This document shows, piece after piece, positions 2,696 through 9,138 of a DNA stretch of 64,000 nt. Location of the stretch: NCBI GenBank assembly GCA_016699425.1, contig CP064975.1, positions 590,098 to 654,097 on the forward strand, given 5' to 3'. How positions within the stretch are numbered: position 1 is the stretch's first letter; every line of letters begins with the position of its first letter. The DNA is from Candidatus Moraniibacteriota bacterium. Its GTDB lineage: Bacteria > Patescibacteriota > Minisyncoccia > Moranbacterales > UBA1568. The position numbers and the translations under genes were made by a program. Under the pieces are notes generated by a model. It searched no databases, was not told where the DNA came from, and saw only the letters and a list, made by a program, of their open reading frames with translations.

Positions 2696-2808
2696 AACAA
2701 AAATATTGATTCGCCCCCATTATACCATGGCGCAAAAGACAGAAAAGCCGCCCTACAGGCGACCTATCCGAGATCTGATTGAGTAAGGCTCTGGGACAAT
2801 GTAGGAGC

Positions 2809-3099
2809 TTATTTTTTGTAATAGCTTTCCATCCACCATTTTTTTAGTAAAGGGAGAGATTGAGTGGAAAGAAAATAGCCGATCACTGGGATAAGAGCAT
2901 TTCGTAGAGGGTTTTCATTGCCGATGACTATGAACGCTCCATATGCGATCACATATGTCACCAGCATAATACTTGCAATCCTACATAGGCTCGTTTCCCA
3001 CGCCTTTTCAGCTTCTACACGAGCATTTCTTTTTTCGATTATTTCTAAGCGTTCGTCAATATTCATACAGTTGCGTGCCGAATCTTGGGACAAAGCCAA
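2809..3099 (-). CDS. small hypothetical membrane protein
   Basis: 96-aa ORF with one hydrophobic helix in an AT-rich segment; no recognisable family. Confidence 0.3.
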   Translation of the reverse strand: MALSQDSARNCMNIDERLEIIEKRNARVEAEKAWETSLCRIASIMLVTYVIAYGAFIVIGNENPLRNALIPVIGYFLSTQSLPLLKKWWMESYYKK

Positions 3100-3116
3100 A
3101 ACGCCTTATTAGAAAA

Positions 3117-3749
3117 TTAACCCCTTTCGATATAATTACGCAATTCTTCTACCGTGTCTACGATTCCTATGAGATTGTCATGTTTTTCGCGCTCAAAAAA
3201 AGTTTTGTCATGGACTCCCCACGTAACGGCTACTGTAGGCACCCCGGCAGTGTCTGCATCTCTTACATCTCCTAGTGCATCCGTCACAAACAGAGCATCC
3301 CCCATATTGATGTCATATTTTTCACCTATTAGGTTGAACTTTTCCACCTTATCCTTCGATATCTCTGCGGTAGGGATGAAATCGAACAGCGATCTTATGC
3401 CGGCGCGTTCGAGCAGGGGCAAACAATTTCTTTCGAACGCGTTTGTATTGAGCACGAGCAGATAACCCGCGCTATGCAAAGCCTTTAGAAAGTTGTCTAT
3501 TCCTTCAAACAACGGGGCTTCTTTTTTCTTCTCAGCATACGCAAGATTGCGGCGTACCACTTCTTCCTCAGTTTCCTCTTTCTTGAGGTGCGAGTATTTT
3601 TTTATCTCTTCGTGAAAATTGCCACTATGCAATTCCTTATACATTTCGCTCGTCACACCGAGATGACCCCCTAGAAAAGTTTCCTCTGCATATGGAATAG
3701 TGTCAAACAACACCCCATCCATATCAAAGATAATCACCTTTTTTCGCAT
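3117..3749 (-). CDS. HAD-superfamily hydrolase (beta-phosphoglucomutase-like)
   Basis: N-terminal motif I FDMDGVLFDT, then motifs II-IV of HAD subfamily IA. Confidence 0.75.
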   Translation of the reverse strand: MRKKVIIFDMDGVLFDTIPYAEETFLGGHLGVTSEMYKELHSGNFHEEIKKYSHLKKEETEEEVVRRNLAYAEKKKEAPLFEGIDNFLKALHSAGYLLVLNTNAFERNCLPLLERAGIRSLFDFIPTAEISKDKVEKFNLIGEKYDINMGDALFVTDALGDVRDADTAGVPTVAVTWGVHDKTFFEREKHDNLIGIVDTVEELRNYIERG

Positions 3750-3785
3750 AGTATATAATTCACTGGCTAAACTTATGGTACGAGA

Positions 3786-4406
3786 CTAGGGCTTACATTG
3801 AGCATCCGTGTCAATGGTAATACCGGAAAGGTAGTCTGCAAACGAGGCGCAATCGCTATAAACGAAGCCTTTTATACCGAGTGCAATCGCGGCGTCTACA
3901 TTGGGTTCACTGTCATCAATAAACAACGATTCTTCTGGTTTCGACTTCGCAAGATCAAGGGCGTGTAAATATATTTCTGAATCAGGCTTGACCATCCCCA
4001 CCGCCGAAGAGATTATTACCTCTGTAAAAAGACTTTTAAATTCAGGGTACTGGGTATAGACTTTTCTTTCAAAGAAAGCGTTGTTAGCGTTAGAGAGAAG
4101 AATAGTCTTGGAACCATCCCGCTTTAACTTTTTGATTATTTCTACGAGGTCCTTATCTATTGTGAGGTAGCTGTCAATTTCTCGGCGAAGTTGTGCTTTG
4201 TCTGAAATTATATTTGGGTACTGTAAGAAGTAATCAAGCATATCATCTTCAGATAAAAAACCGAGATCAAACTGCTTGAAAGTCTCTTGTAAATTCTCAT
4301 CTATAAAATCGTACTTTGTGCTGTGCTCTCTGTACCAAGTATTGAGTACGGGACTGCATACGACACCGAAGCAGTCGAAAATAAAAGTCGTGATGCGTGT
4401 AGACAT
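3786..4406 (-). CDS. HAD-superfamily hydrolase
   Basis: FIFDCFGVV (DxxG-type motif I) near the N-terminus and DD motif near the C-terminus; paralog of the upstream HAD gene. Confidence 0.65.
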   Translation of the reverse strand: MSTRITTFIFDCFGVVCSPVLNTWYREHSTKYDFIDENLQETFKQFDLGFLSEDDMLDYFLQYPNIISDKAQLRREIDSYLTIDKDLVEIIKKLKRDGSKTILLSNANNAFFERKVYTQYPEFKSLFTEVIISSAVGMVKPDSEIYLHALDLAKSKPEESLFIDDSEPNVDAAIALGIKGFVYSDCASFADYLSGITIDTDAQCKP

Positions 4407-4410
4407 ACAT

Positions 4411-4446
4411 TACTAGGTGAGAGATCGAGCTCTCGACCGTTGGCAT
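4411..4446 (-). pseudogene. degenerate tRNA-Lys 3'-half remnant
   Basis: rc reads TGCCAACGGTCGAGAGCTCGATCTCTC, versus tRNA-Lys nt 36-66 AGCCAACGGTCGAGGGTTCGATCCCCC (13-nt identical core plus TCGATC). Confidence 0.5.
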
Positions 4447-4500
4447 ACAAGCCCGCCAGTTGGCAGGCCTACTGCCTGAGGCGGGAGCGATGAATAAATT
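4447..4500 (-). repeat. GC-rich nested hairpin element flanking the tRNA-Lys 3' end
   Basis: gcccgcc-agttggcaggcctactgcctgag-gcggg: outer cccgcc/ggcggg stem with inner ggcag/ctgcc stem. Confidence 0.4.
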
Positions 4501-4576
4501 TGGTGGGTGCGGGGGGGATCGAACCCTCGACCGTTGGCTTAAAAGGCCACTGCTCTACCGACTGAGCTACGCACCC
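4501..4576 (-). tRNA. tRNA-Lys (anticodon UUU), CCA encoded
   Basis: rc is GGGTGCGTAGCTCAGTCGGTAGAGCAGTGGCCTTTTAAGCCAACGGTCGAGGGTTCGATCCCCCCCGCACCCACCA. 7-bp acceptor stem GGGTGCG/CGCACCC, D-arm GCTC-AGTCGGTA-GAGC, anticodon loop CTTTTAA, T-loop TTCGATC. Confidence 0.85.
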
Positions 4577-4812
4577 ATGTTTAGAACATTTTTTAAGAAC
4601 TTTCTCCCAGCTGCCGATTTTAGATACTTTTCTCTTTTTCTCGCTGATAGTCTATCTGACAGCTCTTCGGAGTATACTACACGCAGTCCACTCATGAAAC
4701 GCGTGGTTTTAGTACCGCCTGCTGTATGTTCCGCAAGGCGCCTTGAAAGGTCATTTGTCATGCCTTTATAAAGCTTTCCTAGACTATCTTGGAGGACATA
4801 GACAGTATACAT
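4567..4812 (-). CDS. GIY-YIG nuclease-domain protein (YhbQ/UPF0213-like, 81 aa)
   Basis: MYTVYVLQDSLGKLYKGMTNDLSRRLAEH is the GIY-YIG signature (Y-x-Y…Y-x-G…R…E). The stop TAG lies inside the first 10 nt of tRNA-Lys (…AAC ATG GGT GCG TAG = GGGTGCGTAG). Confidence 0.7.
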   Translation of the reverse strand: MYTVYVLQDSLGKLYKGMTNDLSRRLAEHTAGGTKTTRFMSGLRVVYSEELSDRLSARKREKYLKSAAGRKFLKNVLNMGA

Positions 4813-4815
4813 ACA

Positions 4816-4900
4816 ACTTTACCGACTGAGCCCCGCCCGTACCGAACGCTAGCCCGACAGACTACTGTCATTCTGGCGGGGTACGTTCGGGTGGGTACGC
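4816..4900 (-). pseudogene. tRNA-Lys 5' remnant split by a GC-rich palindromic element
   Basis: rc reads GGGTGCGTA + 64-nt insert (CCCACCCGAACGTACC…CGTTCGGTACGGGCGGG) + GCTCAGTCGGTAAAG. This duplicates tRNA-Lys nt 1-9 and 10-21 with the insert between them. Confidence 0.55.
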
Positions 4901-4959
4901 ACCCGAACATGTTCATCCAAAACACAAGCATTGTACCAAAACCACCCCTTCGGTCAATG

Positions 4960-6288
4960 CTACGCCACTTTTTTCCGAATTATATCCGTCCCGACGAATG
5001 GCTGCAGCACTTTCGGAACGCGGACATTACCATCGACATCCTGATGATTCTCGAGGATAGCGATAAGGATACGCGGAGTCGGTAGTGCTGTGTTGTTCAG
5101 CATATAGACGAACCGCTTCTCGCCGGTCTTTGCGTCGTTGTACTTCACATTGAGCCGACGCGCCTGCCAATCGAGAAAATTCGAGGCTGAACCGGTTTCT
5201 CCGTAGCGGTTCATGCCCGGCATCCACGCCTCGAGATCGAAGGCGCGATACTTACCGGCGCTCATGTCGCCCGTGCAGATCTGAATCTTGCGATACGGGA
5301 GCCCGAGCTCTTCGTGCATCTCCTGCGATAGGCCAATCATCTCTTCCTGCAGGGCATCCGAGAGATCGATATCCGCTGGTGCGATCACGACCTGCTCGAC
5401 CTTCATGAATTCATGGACACGATACATACCTTTCGTATCCTTGCCATACGAGCCGATCTCGCTCCGATAGCACTGGCTGAACCCGGCAAGACGCAGCGGC
5501 AAGACCGCTCCATCGAGCACCTCACCACTATAATACGCGAGGAGCGACGGTTCCGCCGTCCCGACGAGGAACTTCTGTTCTTTGGAAACGCGGCCATCGC
5601 TTTCCTTGTCAGTCGAAGCGATTTCGTATACCTCATCCACCGACCCGTCATATTCGAGCCCTTTGAAATAGCCGGAACCGAAGAGCGGAAAGCCCTTTAC
5701 GAGGGTTGGCGGGATCATCGGCTGATAGCCTTTGGCCGCGAGCTTCTGAAGCGCATACATCATGAGTCCCATGACGAGGGGGACCCCTTCATTCTTCACA
5801 TAGTAGCCACGGTAACCGCCGACTTTCGCCCCACGCTCGAGATCGAGGATATCAAGGTCGCGGCCAAGCTCGATATGTGTTTTCGGCGTAAAATCAAACA
5901 CTGGCTTTTCACCGGAAACATAAACCTCCTTATTTTCGGCATCGCTTTTCCCAACCGGTGTATCCGGTGAGACGATATTTGGCACCATGGCCATCAACTT
6001 ACGAAACTCGTCCTTGGTACGACGGTAAGACACATCCTTTTCCTCAAGCCTCACTTTGATCTCTTTCCCATTGGCGATGATTTCGGCTTTCTCCGTATCG
6101 CCAGCAGCCTTCTGAATCAATTCATTAAGATCATTTTTGAGCGAACGCAGCCCCTCCACTTCCTGGATGATCGAAGTATAATCGTCATGTTTAGCCAAGA
6201 GTGCATCAAGGTCGAGCGACAAATTCTTGTTCGTGATCGCTGTACGAATGGCCGCCTCATTGTCCCGGATAAATGCGATATCAAGCAT
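4960..6288 (-). CDS. serS: seryl-tRNA synthetase
   Basis: 442 aa with N-terminal coiled-coil arm; class II motifs (…GFSQCYRSE…, TGDMSAGKYRAFDLEAW) match SerRS. Confidence 0.9.
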   Translation of the reverse strand: MLDIAFIRDNEAAIRTAITNKNLSLDLDALLAKHDDYTSIIQEVEGLRSLKNDLNELIQKAAGDTEKAEIIANGKEIKVRLEEKDVSYRRTKDEFRKLMAMVPNIVSPDTPVGKSDAENKEVYVSGEKPVFDFTPKTHIELGRDLDILDLERGAKVGGYRGYYVKNEGVPLVMGLMMYALQKLAAKGYQPMIPPTLVKGFPLFGSGYFKGLEYDGSVDEVYEIASTDKESDGRVSKEQKFLVGTAEPSLLAYYSGEVLDGAVLPLRLAGFSQCYRSEIGSYGKDTKGMYRVHEFMKVEQVVIAPADIDLSDALQEEMIGLSQEMHEELGLPYRKIQICTGDMSAGKYRAFDLEAWMPGMNRYGETGSASNFLDWQARRLNVKYNDAKTGEKRFVYMLNNTALPTPRILIAILENHQDVDGNVRVPKVLQPFVGTDIIRKKVA

Positions 6289-6293
6289 ATGGG

Positions 6294-6331
6294 TAGCCTG
6301 CTAGCTTATTAGCTTTAATCTTCGTTAGCTT
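6294..6331. repeat. four direct TAGC(T/C)T hexamers upstream of serS
   Basis: tagcct (6294), tagctt (6302), tagctt (6310), tagctt (6326), all within 40 bp of the serS start. Confidence 0.3.
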
Positions 6332-6408
6332 TCTTAGGTATAAGAGATTCTCACCTAACAGCCTTCAGTGTACCGTTTTCACAAAAAACAGGAAGGATCT
6401 CATATTAC

Positions 6409-6984
6409 TCATTTGCTTTTCTCATTCTTCAGATATTCGTTCGCTTTCAAAATAAGAACGCATGTTGGGCCATGCGTGATTGCTCCAGTCATAACCATAT
6501 TCAAAACTTCTTGAAATGGCATCTTTATTAACTCTATCTGTTCCGTACCTTCTGGTAAAGCACTTCCCCCTACAACCAGTTCTCGTGCGAGAAAAAGAGC
6601 AGAGGGACAATTAACAACCGATGTGAAGGGATCAACACTGCCCAAAGGAACCCATTCAGAAGCTGTAATGCCCAGTTCTTCTTGCAGCTCGCGTTTGGCA
6701 GCAGTGAGAACATCTTCATTCTTGTCGATACCGCCACTCACCGATTCTATACTTTCCCTGTTGATTGCAAAACGAAACTCCTTGGTCAGATATACCGTTC
6801 TGTCGGAATCCATCGGCAACACAGAAACACCCGCTATCATTTCTACAATTCCGAATATGCCATCTTTCCCATCGGGGCGTATGACCTGATGTTCAGTAAC
6901 AGCGATCCACTTGTTCTTGTACTTTTCAATACTCTCTTTGATTTTCCAGGGTCCGTGAGTTCGCATATAATCAAAGTTCTTCAT
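6409..6984 (-). CDS. NUDIX hydrolase (ADP-ribose pyrophosphatase-like)
   Basis: Nudix box GGIDKNEDVLTAAKRELQEELGI (Gx5Ex7REUxEExGU). Confidence 0.85.
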   Translation of the reverse strand: MKNFDYMRTHGPWKIKESIEKYKNKWIAVTEHQVIRPDGKDGIFGIVEMIAGVSVLPMDSDRTVYLTKEFRFAINRESIESVSGGIDKNEDVLTAAKRELQEELGITASEWVPLGSVDPFTSVVNCPSALFLARELVVGGSALPEGTEQIELIKMPFQEVLNMVMTGAITHGPTCVLILKANEYLKNEKSK

Positions 6985-6999
6985 TTTTTTGTGGTCGCT

Positions 7000-7063
7000 G
7001 GTGGATTCCCCGCCTGCCGGACGGGCAGGGAACCAGGGACCCTTGCAATGTGAATGCTGTGCT
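7000..7063 (-). pseudogene. degenerate tRNA-Val-like 3' half with a GC hairpin inserted in the T-loop
   Basis: rc reads GAGCACAGCATTCACATTGCAAGGGTCCCTGGTTCC[ctgcccgtccggcaggcgggg]AATCCACCAGCGACCAC. The first 20 nt are identical to nt 22-41 of the complete tRNA-Val at 7123-7196. Confidence 0.5.
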
Positions 7064-7099
7064 CCCCGCCCGTACCGAACGCGGTACGTTCGGGCGGGT
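7064..7099. repeat. GC-rich palindromic element (second copy of the one at 4830-4900)
   Basis: ccccgcccgtaccgaacgc-ggtacgttcgggcggg. The 19-nt left arm is identical to the copy at 4831-4849; cccgcccg/cgggcggg form an 8-bp stem with an inner taccg/cggta stem. Confidence 0.6.
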
Positions 7100-7122
7100 A
7101 ACCTTTATCCCGTCACCTTTTG

Positions 7123-7196
7123 TGGATGATACTGGATTCGAACCAGTGACCCCAGCAATGTGAATGCTGTGCTCTAACCAACTGAGCTAATCATCC
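7123..7196 (-). tRNA. tRNA-Val (anticodon CAC), CCA not encoded
   Basis: rc is GGATGATTAGCTCAGTTGGTTAGAGCACAGCATTCACATTGCTGGGGTCACTGGTTCGAATCCAGTATCATCCA. Acceptor GGATGAT/ATCATCC, D-arm, anticodon stem CAGCA/TGCTG with loop TTCACAT, T-arm ACTGG-TTCGAAT-CCAGT. Flanked by the 12-bp inverted repeat cccgtcaccttt (7103-7114) / aaaggtgacggg (7201-7212). Confidence 0.8.
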
Positions 7197-7212
7197 GCCG
7201 AAAGGTGACGGG

Positions 7213-7270
7213 ACAAGCCTGAGCCCCGCCTGCAAAGCCTGTGCGTAGCACTACGGGCAGGGATGCGACC
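7213..7270 (-). pseudogene. tRNA-like 5' remnant with GC-rich hairpin insert
   Basis: rc reads GGTCGCAT-[CCCTGCCCGTAGTGCTACGCACAGGCTTTGCAGGCGGG]-GCTCAGGCTTGT. The 5' acceptor strand GGTCGCA is complementary to GCGACC at the end of the 3' remnant at 7000-7063. Confidence 0.35.
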
Positions 7271-7286
7271 ATATACAGCTCTCAAT

Positions 7287-7547
7287 TTAGCGTGTTTCCT
7301 CAGGCTTGTCTATCGCCTTTTCTCCCCAAAACCACTTGTAGATCCCATAGACCCAAATCGCCGAATAAACGATAGAGTTCAGGAAGATCCCCCACTGGTC
7401 ATGCGTGTAAGCCGTGAAAAACCAGAACGGCTGAGCGAGCAGACCCAGCACAAACCCCCATTTATTCTTCCGGGCGACGAGAAACATCGCCGAGAATCCG
7501 AAGATGGGTATACCAACCTGAGCGATCACATCGGCATTGATACTCAT
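7287..7547 (-). CDS. small Trp-rich membrane protein (PnuC-like fragment?)
   Basis: 86 aa, two or three predicted TM helices, W-rich (…KNKWGFVLGLLAQPFWFFTAYTHDQWGIFLN…). Confidence 0.4.
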   Translation of the reverse strand: MSINADVIAQVGIPIFGFSAMFLVARKNKWGFVLGLLAQPFWFFTAYTHDQWGIFLNSIVYSAIWVYGIYKWFWGEKAIDKPEETR

Positions 7548-7605
7548 AGAGCTACTCCTTCGTCTTCATCTCAGCACCAAAATATAAGACTGCACCCTGA
7601 ATTTC

Positions 7606-9138
7606 TTATCTCGTTCCTGCCTGGGACAACGGGTCATCTGTCGTCTTTCCCGATTGCTTTGGTGCGGGACGAGTCGGTGGAAAGATGACCGTCTCGCGTA
7701 TGCCCTTGTCCATGAGGACGGCAAAGAGCCGTTCACTCATGCCAAACCCAAACGCCGGTGGCATCCCGTACTCGAGCGCCTGGAGGAAATCCTCATCGAG
7801 CATCTGTGCCTCGGCATCCCCGGCCTCACGGAGCTTCATCTGCGCTTCGAAACGCGCGCGCTGGTCAATCGGGTCGTTCAATTCAGCGAAGCCGTTGCCG
7901 AGCTCACTGCGTCCCGCGATCGGCTGCATCCGGAGCGTTCTCTTTGAATTTTTCGGATCGAGTTTAGCCAAGGGCGACACCTCGACCGGATGACCGACCA
8001 GGATGCAGGGCTGGATCAATTTCTGTCGTACGGTTTTCTTGTAAATCGTATCGATGAGCCGACCCTTACCGGCTGCTGATTCATACTTGATGCCGAGCTC
8101 GTCTGCCTTGGCACGCAGCATCTCGACCGTCACTTCGCTCGAAAGATCAATACCGGTCTCAGTCTTGAAGGCTTCGAAGTAATCAATCCGCGGGAACGGC
8201 TTCGACCAATCGAGTGTCTCGCCCTCATGCGTTGTCGTGAGACTATCGCCCGCCACCGCCCGGACGATTTCACGGTACAGTTCCTCTACCATGGCACAGC
8301 CCGCCTCAAAATCAGTATAGGCGCTGTAGAACTCGATATGATCGAATTCCTGAAGATGTTCACGATCAATGCCCTCGTTCCGGAATACGCGACCGATTTC
8401 AAACACGCGTTCATAGCCGCCGACGAGGAGCCGCTTCAGTGGCAGTTCAAGCGAGATGCGCAGATAGAAATCCTGATCCAGTGCATGGTGATGCGTGACA
8501 AATGGCTCTGCCTCAGCCCCGCCTGGTACATGCTCCAAAACCGGTGTCTGTACCTCGAGAAAACCACGGGTCGCGAGAAAGGTGCGGACTGTCTGCCAAA
8601 ATGTGTTCTTCTTCACAAACAACTCTCGCGTCTCAGGATTCATCACCAGGTCAAGATAGCGTTGCCGGAGCAGCGCCTCTTCATCTTTCAGTCCGTAGAA
8701 CTCCGTCGGAAGCGGGAGGAGCGACTTCGACAACATCTGCCAACTTTCGACCCGGACGCTCTTCTCATTCTGTTTCGTCAGAAACACCGTACCAGTCATC
8801 GAAATGAAGTCACCCAGCTCGACCGTTTCTTTAAAAAGAGCAAACTTACTATTGTCTTGTGGTGCGTCAACTGGAGCAAGTAATTCCTGTGAAAAGAATC
8901 CTTGAATTTTTCCACTCCCATCTTCGATGTGACAGAACGCGATCTTGCCCATAGTCCGAAGCGAGCGCACCCGACCGACCACCGAGACCTGCGTGGCCGT
9001 GCCGTTCAGCTCATCAAAACGATCAAGGACCGCCTGGTTCGTATCTGTCCGACGGGCTTTTTCCGGATACGCCGAACCGAGCGCGGTGACGATCTTCGCG
9101 AGTTTTTCATGTTTTGCGGTGAGAATATCTTCGCGCAT
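7606..9138 (-). CDS. lysS: lysyl-tRNA synthetase, class II
   Basis: 510 aa with N-terminal OB anticodon-binding domain; class II motifs (FRNEGIDREHLQEFDHIEFY, motif 3 GFGMSERLFAVL). Confidence 0.9.
   Translation of the reverse strand: MREDILTAKHEKLAKIVTALGSAYPEKARRTDTNQAVLDRFDELNGTATQVSVVGRVRSLRTMGKIAFCHIEDGSGKIQGFFSQELLAPVDAPQDNSKFALFKETVELGDFISMTGTVFLTKQNEKSVRVESWQMLSKSLLPLPTEFYGLKDEEALLRQRYLDLVMNPETRELFVKKNTFWQTVRTFLATRGFLEVQTPVLEHVPGGAEAEPFVTHHHALDQDFYLRISLELPLKRLLVGGYERVFEIGRVFRNEGIDREHLQEFDHIEFYSAYTDFEAGCAMVEELYREIVRAVAGDSLTTTHEGETLDWSKPFPRIDYFEAFKTETGIDLSSEVTVEMLRAKADELGIKYESAAGKGRLIDTIYKKTVRQKLIQPCILVGHPVEVSPLAKLDPKNSKRTLRMQPIAGRSELGNGFAELNDPIDQRARFEAQMKLREAGDAEAQMLDEDFLQALEYGMPPAFGFGMSERLFAVLMDKGIRETVIFPPTRPAPKQSGKTTDDPLSQAGTR

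Follow-up and report, generated by a model that had tools for sequence, protein, structure and literature searches.

A candidate selfish cassette for tRNA gene replacement, combining a minimal GIY-YIG nuclease gene with a complete tRNA, in a Moraniibacteriota bacterium

The tRNA-Lys locus in a 64,000-nucleotide stretch of the Candidatus Moraniibacteriota bacterium genome (contig CP064975.1, positions 590,098 to 654,097; hereafter the window) probably represents a selfish, homing-like cassette that replaces tRNA genes, with DNA cleavage by its nuclease being predicted. In the description that we favour, the mobile unit consists of a minimal GIY-YIG gene packed against the 5' end of a complete tRNA, with a palindrome-split 5' tRNA fragment lying upstream. 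The anatomy of the locus shows that the unit sits within an old tRNA-Lys(UUU) gene downstream of serS, and that the 5' part (nt 1 to ~28) and the 3' part (nt ~29 to 65) of this gene flank it on either side. The same arrangement recurs in dozens of independent contigs and is thus neither chance nor an assembly artefact. Coordinates are window positions on the minus strand unless stated otherwise, and L001, L002 and so on are labels of comparison loci or contigs from other genomes and metagenomes.

The initial annotation of this locus had described a 5' tRNA-Lys remnant interrupted by a 64-nt GC-rich palindrome, an 81-amino-acid GIY-YIG open reading frame (ORF) overlapping an intact tRNA-Lys(UUU), a hairpin behind the tRNA and a 3' remnant, and each of these elements was recovered. 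The host gene SerRS (4960-6288) is 85% and 82% identical to its counterparts in the Moraniibacteriota metagenome-assembled genomes (MAGs) L001 and L002. It is followed by a sigma-70-like promoter (4957-4930; TTGACC, a 16-nt spacer and a TG-extended TACAAT), the single promoter-like site between 4350 and 5000, which is the ancestral tRNA-Lys promoter and now stands ahead of the whole unit. The first part of the 5' fragment, GGGTGCGTA (4904-4896), matches nt 1-9 of the tRNA-Lys exactly and occupies the position at which the tRNA-Lys starts in relatives with an empty site. A composite GC-rich palindrome of 64 nt (4895-4832) is inserted between nt 9 and 10, that is between TA and G, and is composed of an outer module, CCCACCCGAACGTACC...GTTCGGTACGGGCGGG, whose loop holds a nested second palindrome, CCGCCAGAATGAC...GTCGGGCTAGCG. 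The 96-nt palindrome region folds with an energy of -24.3 kcal/mol (z=-4.0), a value equalled by 0 of 200 shuffles. The second part of the fragment (4831-4813) begins with GCTCAGTCGGTA (4831-4820), an exact match to tRNA nt 10-21, followed by the seven nucleotides AAGTTGT, which agree with tRNA nt 22-28 at 4/7 positions. While the initial annotation had taken this split remnant for a degenerate leftover, it is not the product of random decay and instead constitutes a conserved, family-wide part of the unit.

The ORF itself (4812-4567, 81 amino acids, ATG at 4812) ends in a TAG codon at 4569-4567, which is at the same time U8-A9-G10 of the downstream tRNA. This intact tRNA-Lys(UUU) (4576-4501) is the working copy: it is called by ARAGORN, scores 67.1 bits with the Rfam tRNA model and is 98-100% identical to the tRNA-Lys of other Moranbacteria. 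Between it and the old 3' half, touching the start of the remnant, lies a GC hairpin (4485-4452; CCCGCC-TCA-GGCAG-TAGGC-CTGCC-AACT-GGCGGG) of moderate stability (z=-2.35), which carries no T-run and is therefore unlike a terminator; in L127 a hairpin arm likewise adjoins the start of the old 3' half. The 3' remnant (4454-4419), starting ~50 nt behind the intact tRNA, corresponds to nt ~29-65 of the older tRNA-Lys, with a degenerate T arm and a lost 3' acceptor strand. Its positions 4454-4423 are identical to tRNA nt 29-60 at 27/32 sites and the local alignment score is 39, compared to a shuffle maximum of 22 (n=100). This remnant thus aligns above chance, and the only correction to the earlier assignment is a trivial offset, as the 26-mer then noted corresponds to nt 39-64 rather than 36-66. 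Past the 3' remnant a gene for a HAD hydrolase begins at 4406.

An Rfam search of positions 3500-8000 (E<=10) returned the two tRNAs and a few weak spurious matches, with no intron and no known RNA motif for the palindromes. The matches to snoR9 (27 bits), freshwater-1 (16.8 bits), MEG8 and Plastid-ycf2 are below threshold and were rejected as spurious; they sit at 6936-7047 and, on the plus strand, at 7122-7196 and 4503-4576, covering antisense tRNA genes or the palindrome-bearing tRNA-Val remnant. A group I intron in the tRNA gene was likewise rejected on the grounds of the missing intron match and the presence of a complete, uninterrupted tRNA.

The closest relatives of the window provide the empty site. 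L002, L005, L008 and L013 carry a tRNA-Lys ~70 nt downstream of serS and no ORF, as does L001 with a different tRNA-Lys allele, and in L002 and L005 the plain tRNA-Lys is preceded by TTGACC/TACAAT hexamers shared with the window. The window branches in the SerRS tree as sister to L001 and L002, both of which are empty. The locus is thus polymorphic, being filled in the window, L081 and L083, and empty in L001, L002, L005, L008, L013 and others. A tblastn search with the ORF against 80 serS-syntenic loci (~6 kb per side) found no GIY-YIG gene. The absence from these loci and from both closest relatives excludes a universally syntenic, YhbQ-like housekeeping gene, which the initial annotation had named as the competing scenario.

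The ORF product is a member of the GIY-YIG superfamily, as proposed before: the Pfam model PF01541 covers residues 1-70 with 45.7 bits (cut-off 22.6, E=7.9e-12). Y5, Y15, G17, R25, H29 and E61 are invariant in 51 aligned members, and ratios of nonsynonymous to synonymous substitution (dN/dS) of 0.07-0.11 in six pairs demonstrate purifying selection. The AlphaFold2 model (mean predicted local distance difference test score, pLDDT, 90.6) has the topology E-E-H-E-H-H, and its top Foldseek matches are the UPF0213 structures 1ywl and 1zg2 (EF2693 and BH0048), Slx1 (6seh, query-based TM-score 0.68) and the UvrC N-domain. This is further supported by a profile search of the PDB, which yields 1ywl at E=1.2e-9, 1zg2 at E=5.6e-8 and Slx1 at E=0.03. 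All 81 amino acids are taken up by the catalytic domain, leaving no space for a DNA-binding domain. While the superfamily assignment of the initial annotation stands, its picture of a classic homing endonuclease has to be modified, as the protein belongs to the minimal, bare Slx1/UPF0213-like branch and not to the I-TevI/Seg type with a DNA-binding domain. The NCBIfam model for group-I-intron endonucleases scores 14.4 bits against a cut-off of 56, no PHROG match was obtained, and no PADLOC defence family matches at E<=0.01.

We then characterized the genomic setting of the family. A word-indexed search retrieved 171 close protein relatives of 77-84 amino acids, of which those with a taxon name are almost all from MAGs of the candidate phyla radiation (CPR), and a profile search collected 3,099 clusters (50% identity) at E<=1e-10. 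For 83 ORFs the loci were fetched and searched with ARAGORN for co-oriented tRNAs within -30 to +20 nt of the stop codon. Such a tRNA lies beside the stop in at least 69 of the 83. In 43 cases it starts exactly 7 nt before the end of the ORF, so that the stop codon forms nt 8-10, while 13 ORFs have their own stop 4-15 nt ahead of the tRNA. Seven further ORFs (L085, L087, L091, L098, L107, L125 and L163) continue ~20 nt into the tRNA to a second conserved TAG at nt 20-22 (U20-A21-G22, in GGT TAG AGC). The ORFs that lack an adjacent tRNA lie mostly at contig ends or beside interrupted tRNAs. The linked tRNAs represent 17 anticodons, with specificities for Ala, Asp, Lys, Val, Phe, Ile, Thr, Arg and His, and this bears out the expectation that the same ORF would be found beside other tRNAs. 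Among ORF pairs that are at least 80% identical the tRNA type is always shared, and the nearest-neighbour ORF has the same amino-acid specificity in 26/61 cases compared to 12% expected, indicating that the association of ORF and tRNA is heritable but switches over time.

The element TAGCTC is found at nt 8-13 in 53/68 ORF-linked tRNAs compared to 21/57 other tRNAs of the same loci (p=4e-6). Almost all ORFs are preceded by a 5' tRNA fragment split by a palindrome, which is positioned at 21/22 in 43 loci, at 9/10 in 18 (including the window) and at 13/14 in 5, whereas 3' remnants are significant in 20/66 loci (~30%). The enrichment of the TAGCTC D-arm and the palindrome positions may be read, at the level of sequence, as indirect hints of site-specific cleavage of the ORF-less allele. 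It was also observed that the two recurrent stop positions of the ORF coincide with the two commonest palindrome sites (between TA and G at 9/10 and at 21/22).

The palindromes share the family consensus CCCGCCCG...CGGGCGGG. A scan of 1.26 Mb detected ~75 of them, essentially all flanked by tRNA D-arm or, less often, T-arm or variable-loop sequence, and none was found outside tRNA debris. They occur in both orientations and without target duplication, forming clean insertions, for example between GGTA and GAGC. The sites at 9/10, 13/14 and 21/22 are D-stem borders and the T-arm sites are mostly stem-loop borders, a distribution reminiscent, by analogy, of junction cutting by Slx1. The 64-nt module of the window is at least 93% identical to modules in L083 (Lys, 9/10), L090 (Phe, 9/10), L094 (Thr, 21/22) and L108 (Ile, 13/14). 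As this module of 59-64 nt is common to four tRNA species and three positions, it is a discrete mobile sequence module and not the result of local decay. A second palindrome family, CGCCAGAATGAC...GTCGGGCTGGCG, is nested in either orientation in CCCGCCCG...CGGGCGGG loops in the window (4895-4832), L083, L090, L094, L108, L145, L150 and L116, demonstrating that modules stack inside one another. CGGGCGGG occurs 8 times in the 64-kb window, the palindromic module only in three copies at two tRNA loci. Palindromes are also present at loci without an adjacent ORF, namely the window tRNA-Val, L008 and L041. The possibility that a palindrome acts as an intron of a working tRNA was rejected: when perfect-stem palindromes were excised and ARAGORN was rerun, a full tRNA was recovered only in L158 and L159, so that palindrome-bearing copies are mostly dead fragments.

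The tRNA-Val locus of the window is an ORF-less instance of the same process and the clearest case of invasion, in which a foreign allele lies inside the native allele and the remnant is native. The 5' fragment of the native gene (7270-7218) consists of GGTCGCATC, a 37-nt palindrome at 9/10 (7261-7225) and GCTCAGG. Next comes the incoming tRNA-Val(CAC), allele B (7196-7122, ARAGORN), which occupies the D-loop of the native gene. The two arms of a 13-bp inverted repeat, TCCCGTCACCTTT (7213-7201) and AAAGGTGACGGGA (7120-7108), enclose it, and the whole spans 7213-7108. The 3' part of the native allele A (7103-6992) reads GGTTA, a palindrome at 21/22 (7098-7065), GAGCAC...GGTTC, a second palindrome in the T loop (7029-7009) and GAATCC...GCGACCA, ending at 6992. 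Once the nested gene and all three palindromes are taken out, ARAGORN recognizes the remainder as a tRNA-Val(CAC), whose nearest match is allele A of the sister L001. Allele A is intact in L001 and L002, while allele B is found in L004, L007, L009, L024, L044 and L081. The distribution of the alleles is discordant with the SerRS tree, as L007 carries allele B and L006 and L017 carry allele A at 98% SerRS identity. L007 shares the nested tRNA-Val layout with the window, and its bracketing repeat differs at six positions and is still complementary. The tRNA-Lys(UUU) genes of L001 (7388-7463) and L002 (7392-7465) also represent differing alleles (acceptor GGGTACA with T-stem GCAGG, and GGGTGCG with GAGGG), which is consistent with allele replacement at the tRNA-Lys locus too.

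Two HAD hydrolases, a 96-amino-acid ORF without Pfam match and a NUDIX gene adjoin the tRNA-Lys and tRNA-Val debris of the window (2809-4406 and 6409-6984). L001 and L002 have no HAD, 96-amino-acid ORF or NUDIX gene at these positions; there the tRNA-Val adjoins serS and a BNR/Sortilin gene follows the tRNA-Lys. It appears that the tRNA loci are gene-gain hot spots too.

Cassettes can be much younger than their host loci. In the syntenic pair L094 and L127 the cassette ORFs are 91% identical with a proportion of synonymous differences (pS) of 0.29, while the upstream host gene is only ~50-59% identical (tblastx segments) and saturated at pS 0.76. Nucleotide identity between the two loci becomes high at ~nt 8 of the 5' fragment, persists across the palindrome, nt 22-34, the ORF and the tRNA, and ends at the tRNA 3' end. 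Likewise, L083 and the window have 38% identical SerRS, 76% identical GIY-YIG proteins and the same composite palindrome. Taken together with the empty sister loci, the 17 anticodons and the tRNA-Val alleles, these ages support the proposal of the initial annotation that a nuclease and a replacement tRNA form a mobile cassette, and not a housekeeping gene, inside an older tRNA-Lys.

A search of 65 loci revealed no consistent target-site duplication, terminal inverted repeat, inverted repeat or direct repeat around the ORF and tRNA, which fits recombination-based spread rather than transposition. A transposon or miniature inverted-repeat transposable element, considered for both the palindrome module and the ORF-tRNA unit, was rejected, as there is neither a target-site duplication nor an inverted repeat at the borders. 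A 7-nt repeat in the window, TTGTATG (4816-4810 and 4450-4444), was also discarded, since repeats of at least 7 nt occur in 10/65 loci, approximately as expected by chance. No family members were found among 2.9 million viral contigs (IMG/VR), arguing against a phage vector, and a search for such a vector with a palindrome 17-mer gave only four chance matches in GC-rich coding DNA.

Loci elsewhere display further layers. At the tRNA-Thr locus of L127 an upstream fragment (nt 1 to ~38) and a downstream remnant (nt ~36-76) each carry a palindrome, and the acceptor strands of these two old halves are complementary to each other and unlike the acceptor stem of the intact tRNA-Thr after the ORF. 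The old halves of the window tRNA-Val likewise pair mutually and not with the new tRNA. L007 and L017 contain ORF-less derivatives (5' fragment, small palindrome, ~70-nt spacer and tRNA-Lys) in opposite orientations, and nested or repeated layers are found in L099, L103, L110, L156 and L161. Three tRNA-Lys arrangements are present at 7300-8300 of L006, L007 and L017, whose SerRS are 98% identical: an inverted orientation, a 5' fragment with small palindrome and ~70-nt spacer but no ORF, and a 3'-end remnant. In such near-identical hosts this indicates very fast local rearrangement.

Several side observations were made at these loci. L158 and L159 (3310-3480) and L149 (470-560) contain a full-length second tRNA copy directly downstream of the intact ORF-linked tRNA. 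In L158/L159 this copy differs from the intact tRNA-Thr only by the palindromes it carries at 9/10 and 21/22, and the identity of the remaining sequence points to very recent palindrome insertion or ongoing gene conversion. An 88-nt unit, made up of the tRNA-Phe 3' half with a variable-loop palindrome, is present in five perfect tandem copies in L112 (3300-3750) and in six in the same region of L118; the array directly follows the ORF-linked intact tRNA-Phe, and its copy number differs between the two metagenomes. Two to three tandem divergent GIY-YIG paralogues (32-43% identity to the query) lie by tRNAs in L092 (2697-3240), L110 (3001-4061) and L117 (2451-3246), which suggests successive invasions of one site. 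Direct repeats of tRNA 3' ends are seen 130-200 nt downstream in several loci.

How might such a cassette spread? We envisage that the nuclease cuts naive tRNA genes with a conserved TAGCTC...GAGC D-arm, possibly in a structure-dependent manner as Slx1 does, and that repair of the break would use a cassette-bearing allele as template. The left homology arm would then be provided by the upstream 5' fragment and the right arm by the intact tRNA, and the insertion would be tolerated because the incoming tRNA presumably keeps the cell viable. The palindromes would interrupt the conserved D-arm and T-arm sequence of the leftovers, which could then be neither cleaved nor functional, and would reduce the length of direct repeats through which the ORF might otherwise be lost. 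Should repair pair with other segments of the donor, a palindrome alone could be copied into another tRNA copy, which would explain palindrome-only copies such as that of L158. The whole unit is expected to be transcribed from the old tRNA promoter. With its stop codon located within the tRNA, the ORF mRNA should lose this codon when RNase P processes the transcript at nt 1, and this may keep nuclease levels low. In a wider and distinctly more tentative form, these ideas could describe a so far unrecognized class of bacterial mobile elements with three modules: a minimal structure-specific GIY-YIG nuclease, a cargo tRNA, and small GC-rich palindromes written into the helix junctions of the displaced tRNA. 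Such elements might continually overwrite CPR tRNA genes and drive horizontal replacement of tRNA alleles, with a form of gene-replacement 'addiction', in which the host comes to rely on the tRNA copy of the element, and a nuclease dosage set by RNase P cutting in the last codons of the ORF.

Several points weigh against the interpretation as a replacement cassette. Both the cleavage activity and the target site are predictions from sequence. Whereas the GIY-YIG homing endonucleases known so far have a domain for DNA binding or specificity, the protein lacks one. The intact tRNA beside the ORF retains an unaltered D-arm, the presumed target, while the old copies are disrupted by palindromes; self-immunity may be explicable only by low expression or by dependence on DNA structure. 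The low proportion of loci with a significant 3' remnant (20/66) also has to be considered; at many loci the tRNA may have been rebuilt by the unit from sequence already present there, and no whole tRNA imported. Two models, in which the cassette either brings a whole tRNA or inserts at the palindrome site and reuses the resident 3' part, are favoured by different loci. The 5' fragment of the window agrees with the tRNA at 21/21 positions, while the 3' remnant has diverged by 16%, a combination with P ~0.03 if both are of the same age. The two remnants may therefore have different histories, with some indication that a later conversion event renewed the left part. For the window copy the signal of horizontal transfer is weak, as the comparison with L081 gives pS 0.64 for the ORF and 0.75 for serS. 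Finally, the model gives no account of how the ORF switches between tRNA species while remaining packed against nt 1.

The main alternative, which we consider unlikely, yet worth weighing, is that the GC palindromes are themselves the primary mobile parasites. As small structure-forming elements they would insert at tRNA helix junctions, the Slx1-like GIY-YIG protein would act in trans as their structure-specific nuclease (a 'transposase' or resolvase), and duplicated or imported tRNA copies would have been selected afterwards as compensation for the genes inactivated by palindromes. Such an origin would agree with a module that is at least 93% identical across hosts with 38% SerRS identity, in four tRNA species, three positions and both orientations, with palindromes nesting in each other's loops, and with their presence at the ORF-less window tRNA-Val, L008 and L041. 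Structurally, the protein comes closest to structure-specific nucleases, the full tRNA copy in L158/L159, identical to the intact one, bears two palindromes, and mobile GC palindromes are known from yeast mitochondria (PMC4478555). However, this account by itself does not explain the packing of the ORF against tRNA nt 1 in ~70 loci or the split of old genes in the anticodon region by ORF plus tRNA (window, L127), and with no palindrome seen beyond tRNA debris autonomous spread is unsupported. It also overlaps heavily with the cassette interpretation, from which it differs mainly in the component that drives the system.

The ORF could also be a host factor of tRNA metabolism, acting in the processing or surveillance of precursor tRNAs with which it is co-transcribed, the partial tRNAs arising as side effects of local duplication or slippage in places that are strongly transcribed and prone to form structure. 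Strong purifying selection on the ORF and its apparently invariable co-orientation and co-transcription with the tRNA, as deduced from sequence, are compatible with this role, and a fusion of a prokaryotic Slx1-like domain to the tRNA methyltransferase TrmH has been taken as a hint of RNA metabolism (PMC1564403); the tandem tRNA 3' halves of L112/L118 do resemble slippage. We nevertheless regard a host function as improbable: the ORF is missing from the closest relatives and all 80 serS loci, it is linked to 17 anticodons and can be present as 2-3 tandem paralogues, and the L094/L127 cassette is much younger than its host locus. Moreover, the tRNA-Val remnants derive from another allele than the intact tRNA, which local duplication cannot produce. 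Even less credible is that the partial tRNAs are attachment-site (att) scars of integrase-borne genomic islands with the GIY-YIG gene as incidental cargo. The downstream repeats of tRNA 3' ends and the extra genes at the window tRNA loci compared to L001/L002 (two HAD hydrolases, the 96-amino-acid ORF and NUDIX) could be viewed in this way. The most constant duplicate is, however, the 5' part of the tRNA and not the 3' part, the distance from the window tRNA to its 3' remnant is only ~50 nt, and palindromes as well as the fusion of ORF and tRNA are foreign to integrase att sites. The ORFs in 2700-7000 encode HAD, HAD, the 96-amino-acid protein, GIY-YIG, SerRS and NUDIX, with no integrase between or beside the repeats, and an integrase-mediated, tRNA-targeting island was rejected because no tyrosine or serine recombinase is among them.

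If the cassette interpretation is correct, a selfish element routinely overwrites tRNA genes in the very small genomes of CPR/Patescibacteria, where tRNA genes are usually viewed as passive landing pads for integrases or as hosts of self-splicing introns. This would offer a mechanism for the horizontal replacement of tRNA alleles and for the tRNA-fragment debris in CPR genomes, and a testable role for part of the large Slx1/UPF0213-like family of ~80 amino acids, which is annotated only generically. An enzyme that recognizes tRNA-gene DNA by its structure or D-arm would be the smallest known homing-type nuclease and a model for specificity without a DNA-binding domain, and the U8-A9-G10 stop suggests that tRNA maturation is coupled to nuclease expression. 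Annotators would have to treat the tRNA fragments and palindromes that neighbour CPR tRNA genes as scars of the element and not as assembly noise.

Searches of the full-text literature yielded no account of either GIY-YIG/tRNA cassettes or the palindromes in CPR, in line with the remark in the initial annotation that such a tRNA-replacing cassette was not known to be described, and papers on CPR introns and rRNA insertions contain no description of a tRNA cassette system (PMC13011429, PMC11270868, PMC12455944). A free-standing nuclease cassette with gene replacement of this type is thus apparently undescribed so far; its unusual features are the minimal nuclease, the stop codon within the tRNA, the replacement of an RNA gene and the site-specific palindromic modules. 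At the level of the protein, the best sequence and fold matches are UPF0213, YhbQ and prokaryotic Slx1-like proteins (PDB 1ywl and 1zg2, best E=1e-9; PMC1564403), which share the minimal domain without accessory domains. These are treated as conserved stand-alone genes with an unknown or repair-related role, and linkage to a tRNA, overlap of the stop codon and remnants are not described for them (PMC1564403). The nearest analogues of the palindromes are the GC clusters of mitochondria, which are likewise short, GC-rich and hairpin-forming. Yeast GC42 clusters are mobile GC-rich hairpin modules with constrained structure that merge or nest (PMC4478555), and GC palindromes flanking Neurospora mitochondrial tRNA genes are mentioned there with reference to Yin et al. 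1981. GC42 duplicates an AG target and is mostly intergenic, whereas modules of the window type insert without duplication at defined sites of tRNA remnants and co-occur with a bacterial GIY-YIG ORF.

Invasive elements that preserve tRNA function are known from the same host phylum. Group I introns of Patescibacteria tRNAs self-splice from the anticodon loop (35/36 and other positions) and are associated with HNH, LAGLIDADG or PD-(D/E)XK enzymes (PMC13011429). The window cassette has no ribozyme, as judged from the lack of an Rfam match, and function is kept because the gene is present in a second, complete copy. In function, the nearest analogue is SegB of phage T4, a free-standing GIY-YIG homing endonuclease encoded in a cluster of phage tRNA genes. 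It recognizes a conserved tRNA motif, cleaves many tRNA genes and carries both its own gene and the adjoining tRNA genes into genomes lacking it (PMC2330249). SegB is phage-borne and of full size; it has a recognition region, and its 27-bp site has the T-psi-C motif at the centre. In contrast, the window ORF is a bare Slx1/UPF0213 domain of 81 amino acids encoded on the chromosome of CPR bacteria, without relatives in the 2.9 million viral contigs searched, and it overlaps its tRNA inside a disrupted older copy with site-specific palindromes. The logic of replacement itself has a counterpart in the mORFs of fungal mitochondria, the 'gene hybrids' of Allomyces atp6 and of Glomus atp6, atp9, cox2 and nad3, in which an endonuclease ORF travels with a copy of the displaced gene segment, keeps the gene working and leaves the native segment downstream (PMC3630166). 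While mORFs target organelle protein-coding genes, replace their C-terminus and mostly encode LAGLIDADG or larger GIY-YIG nucleases, the window cassette targets an RNA gene, supplies a whole tRNA, carries its ORF upstream of the replacement and includes palindromic modules.

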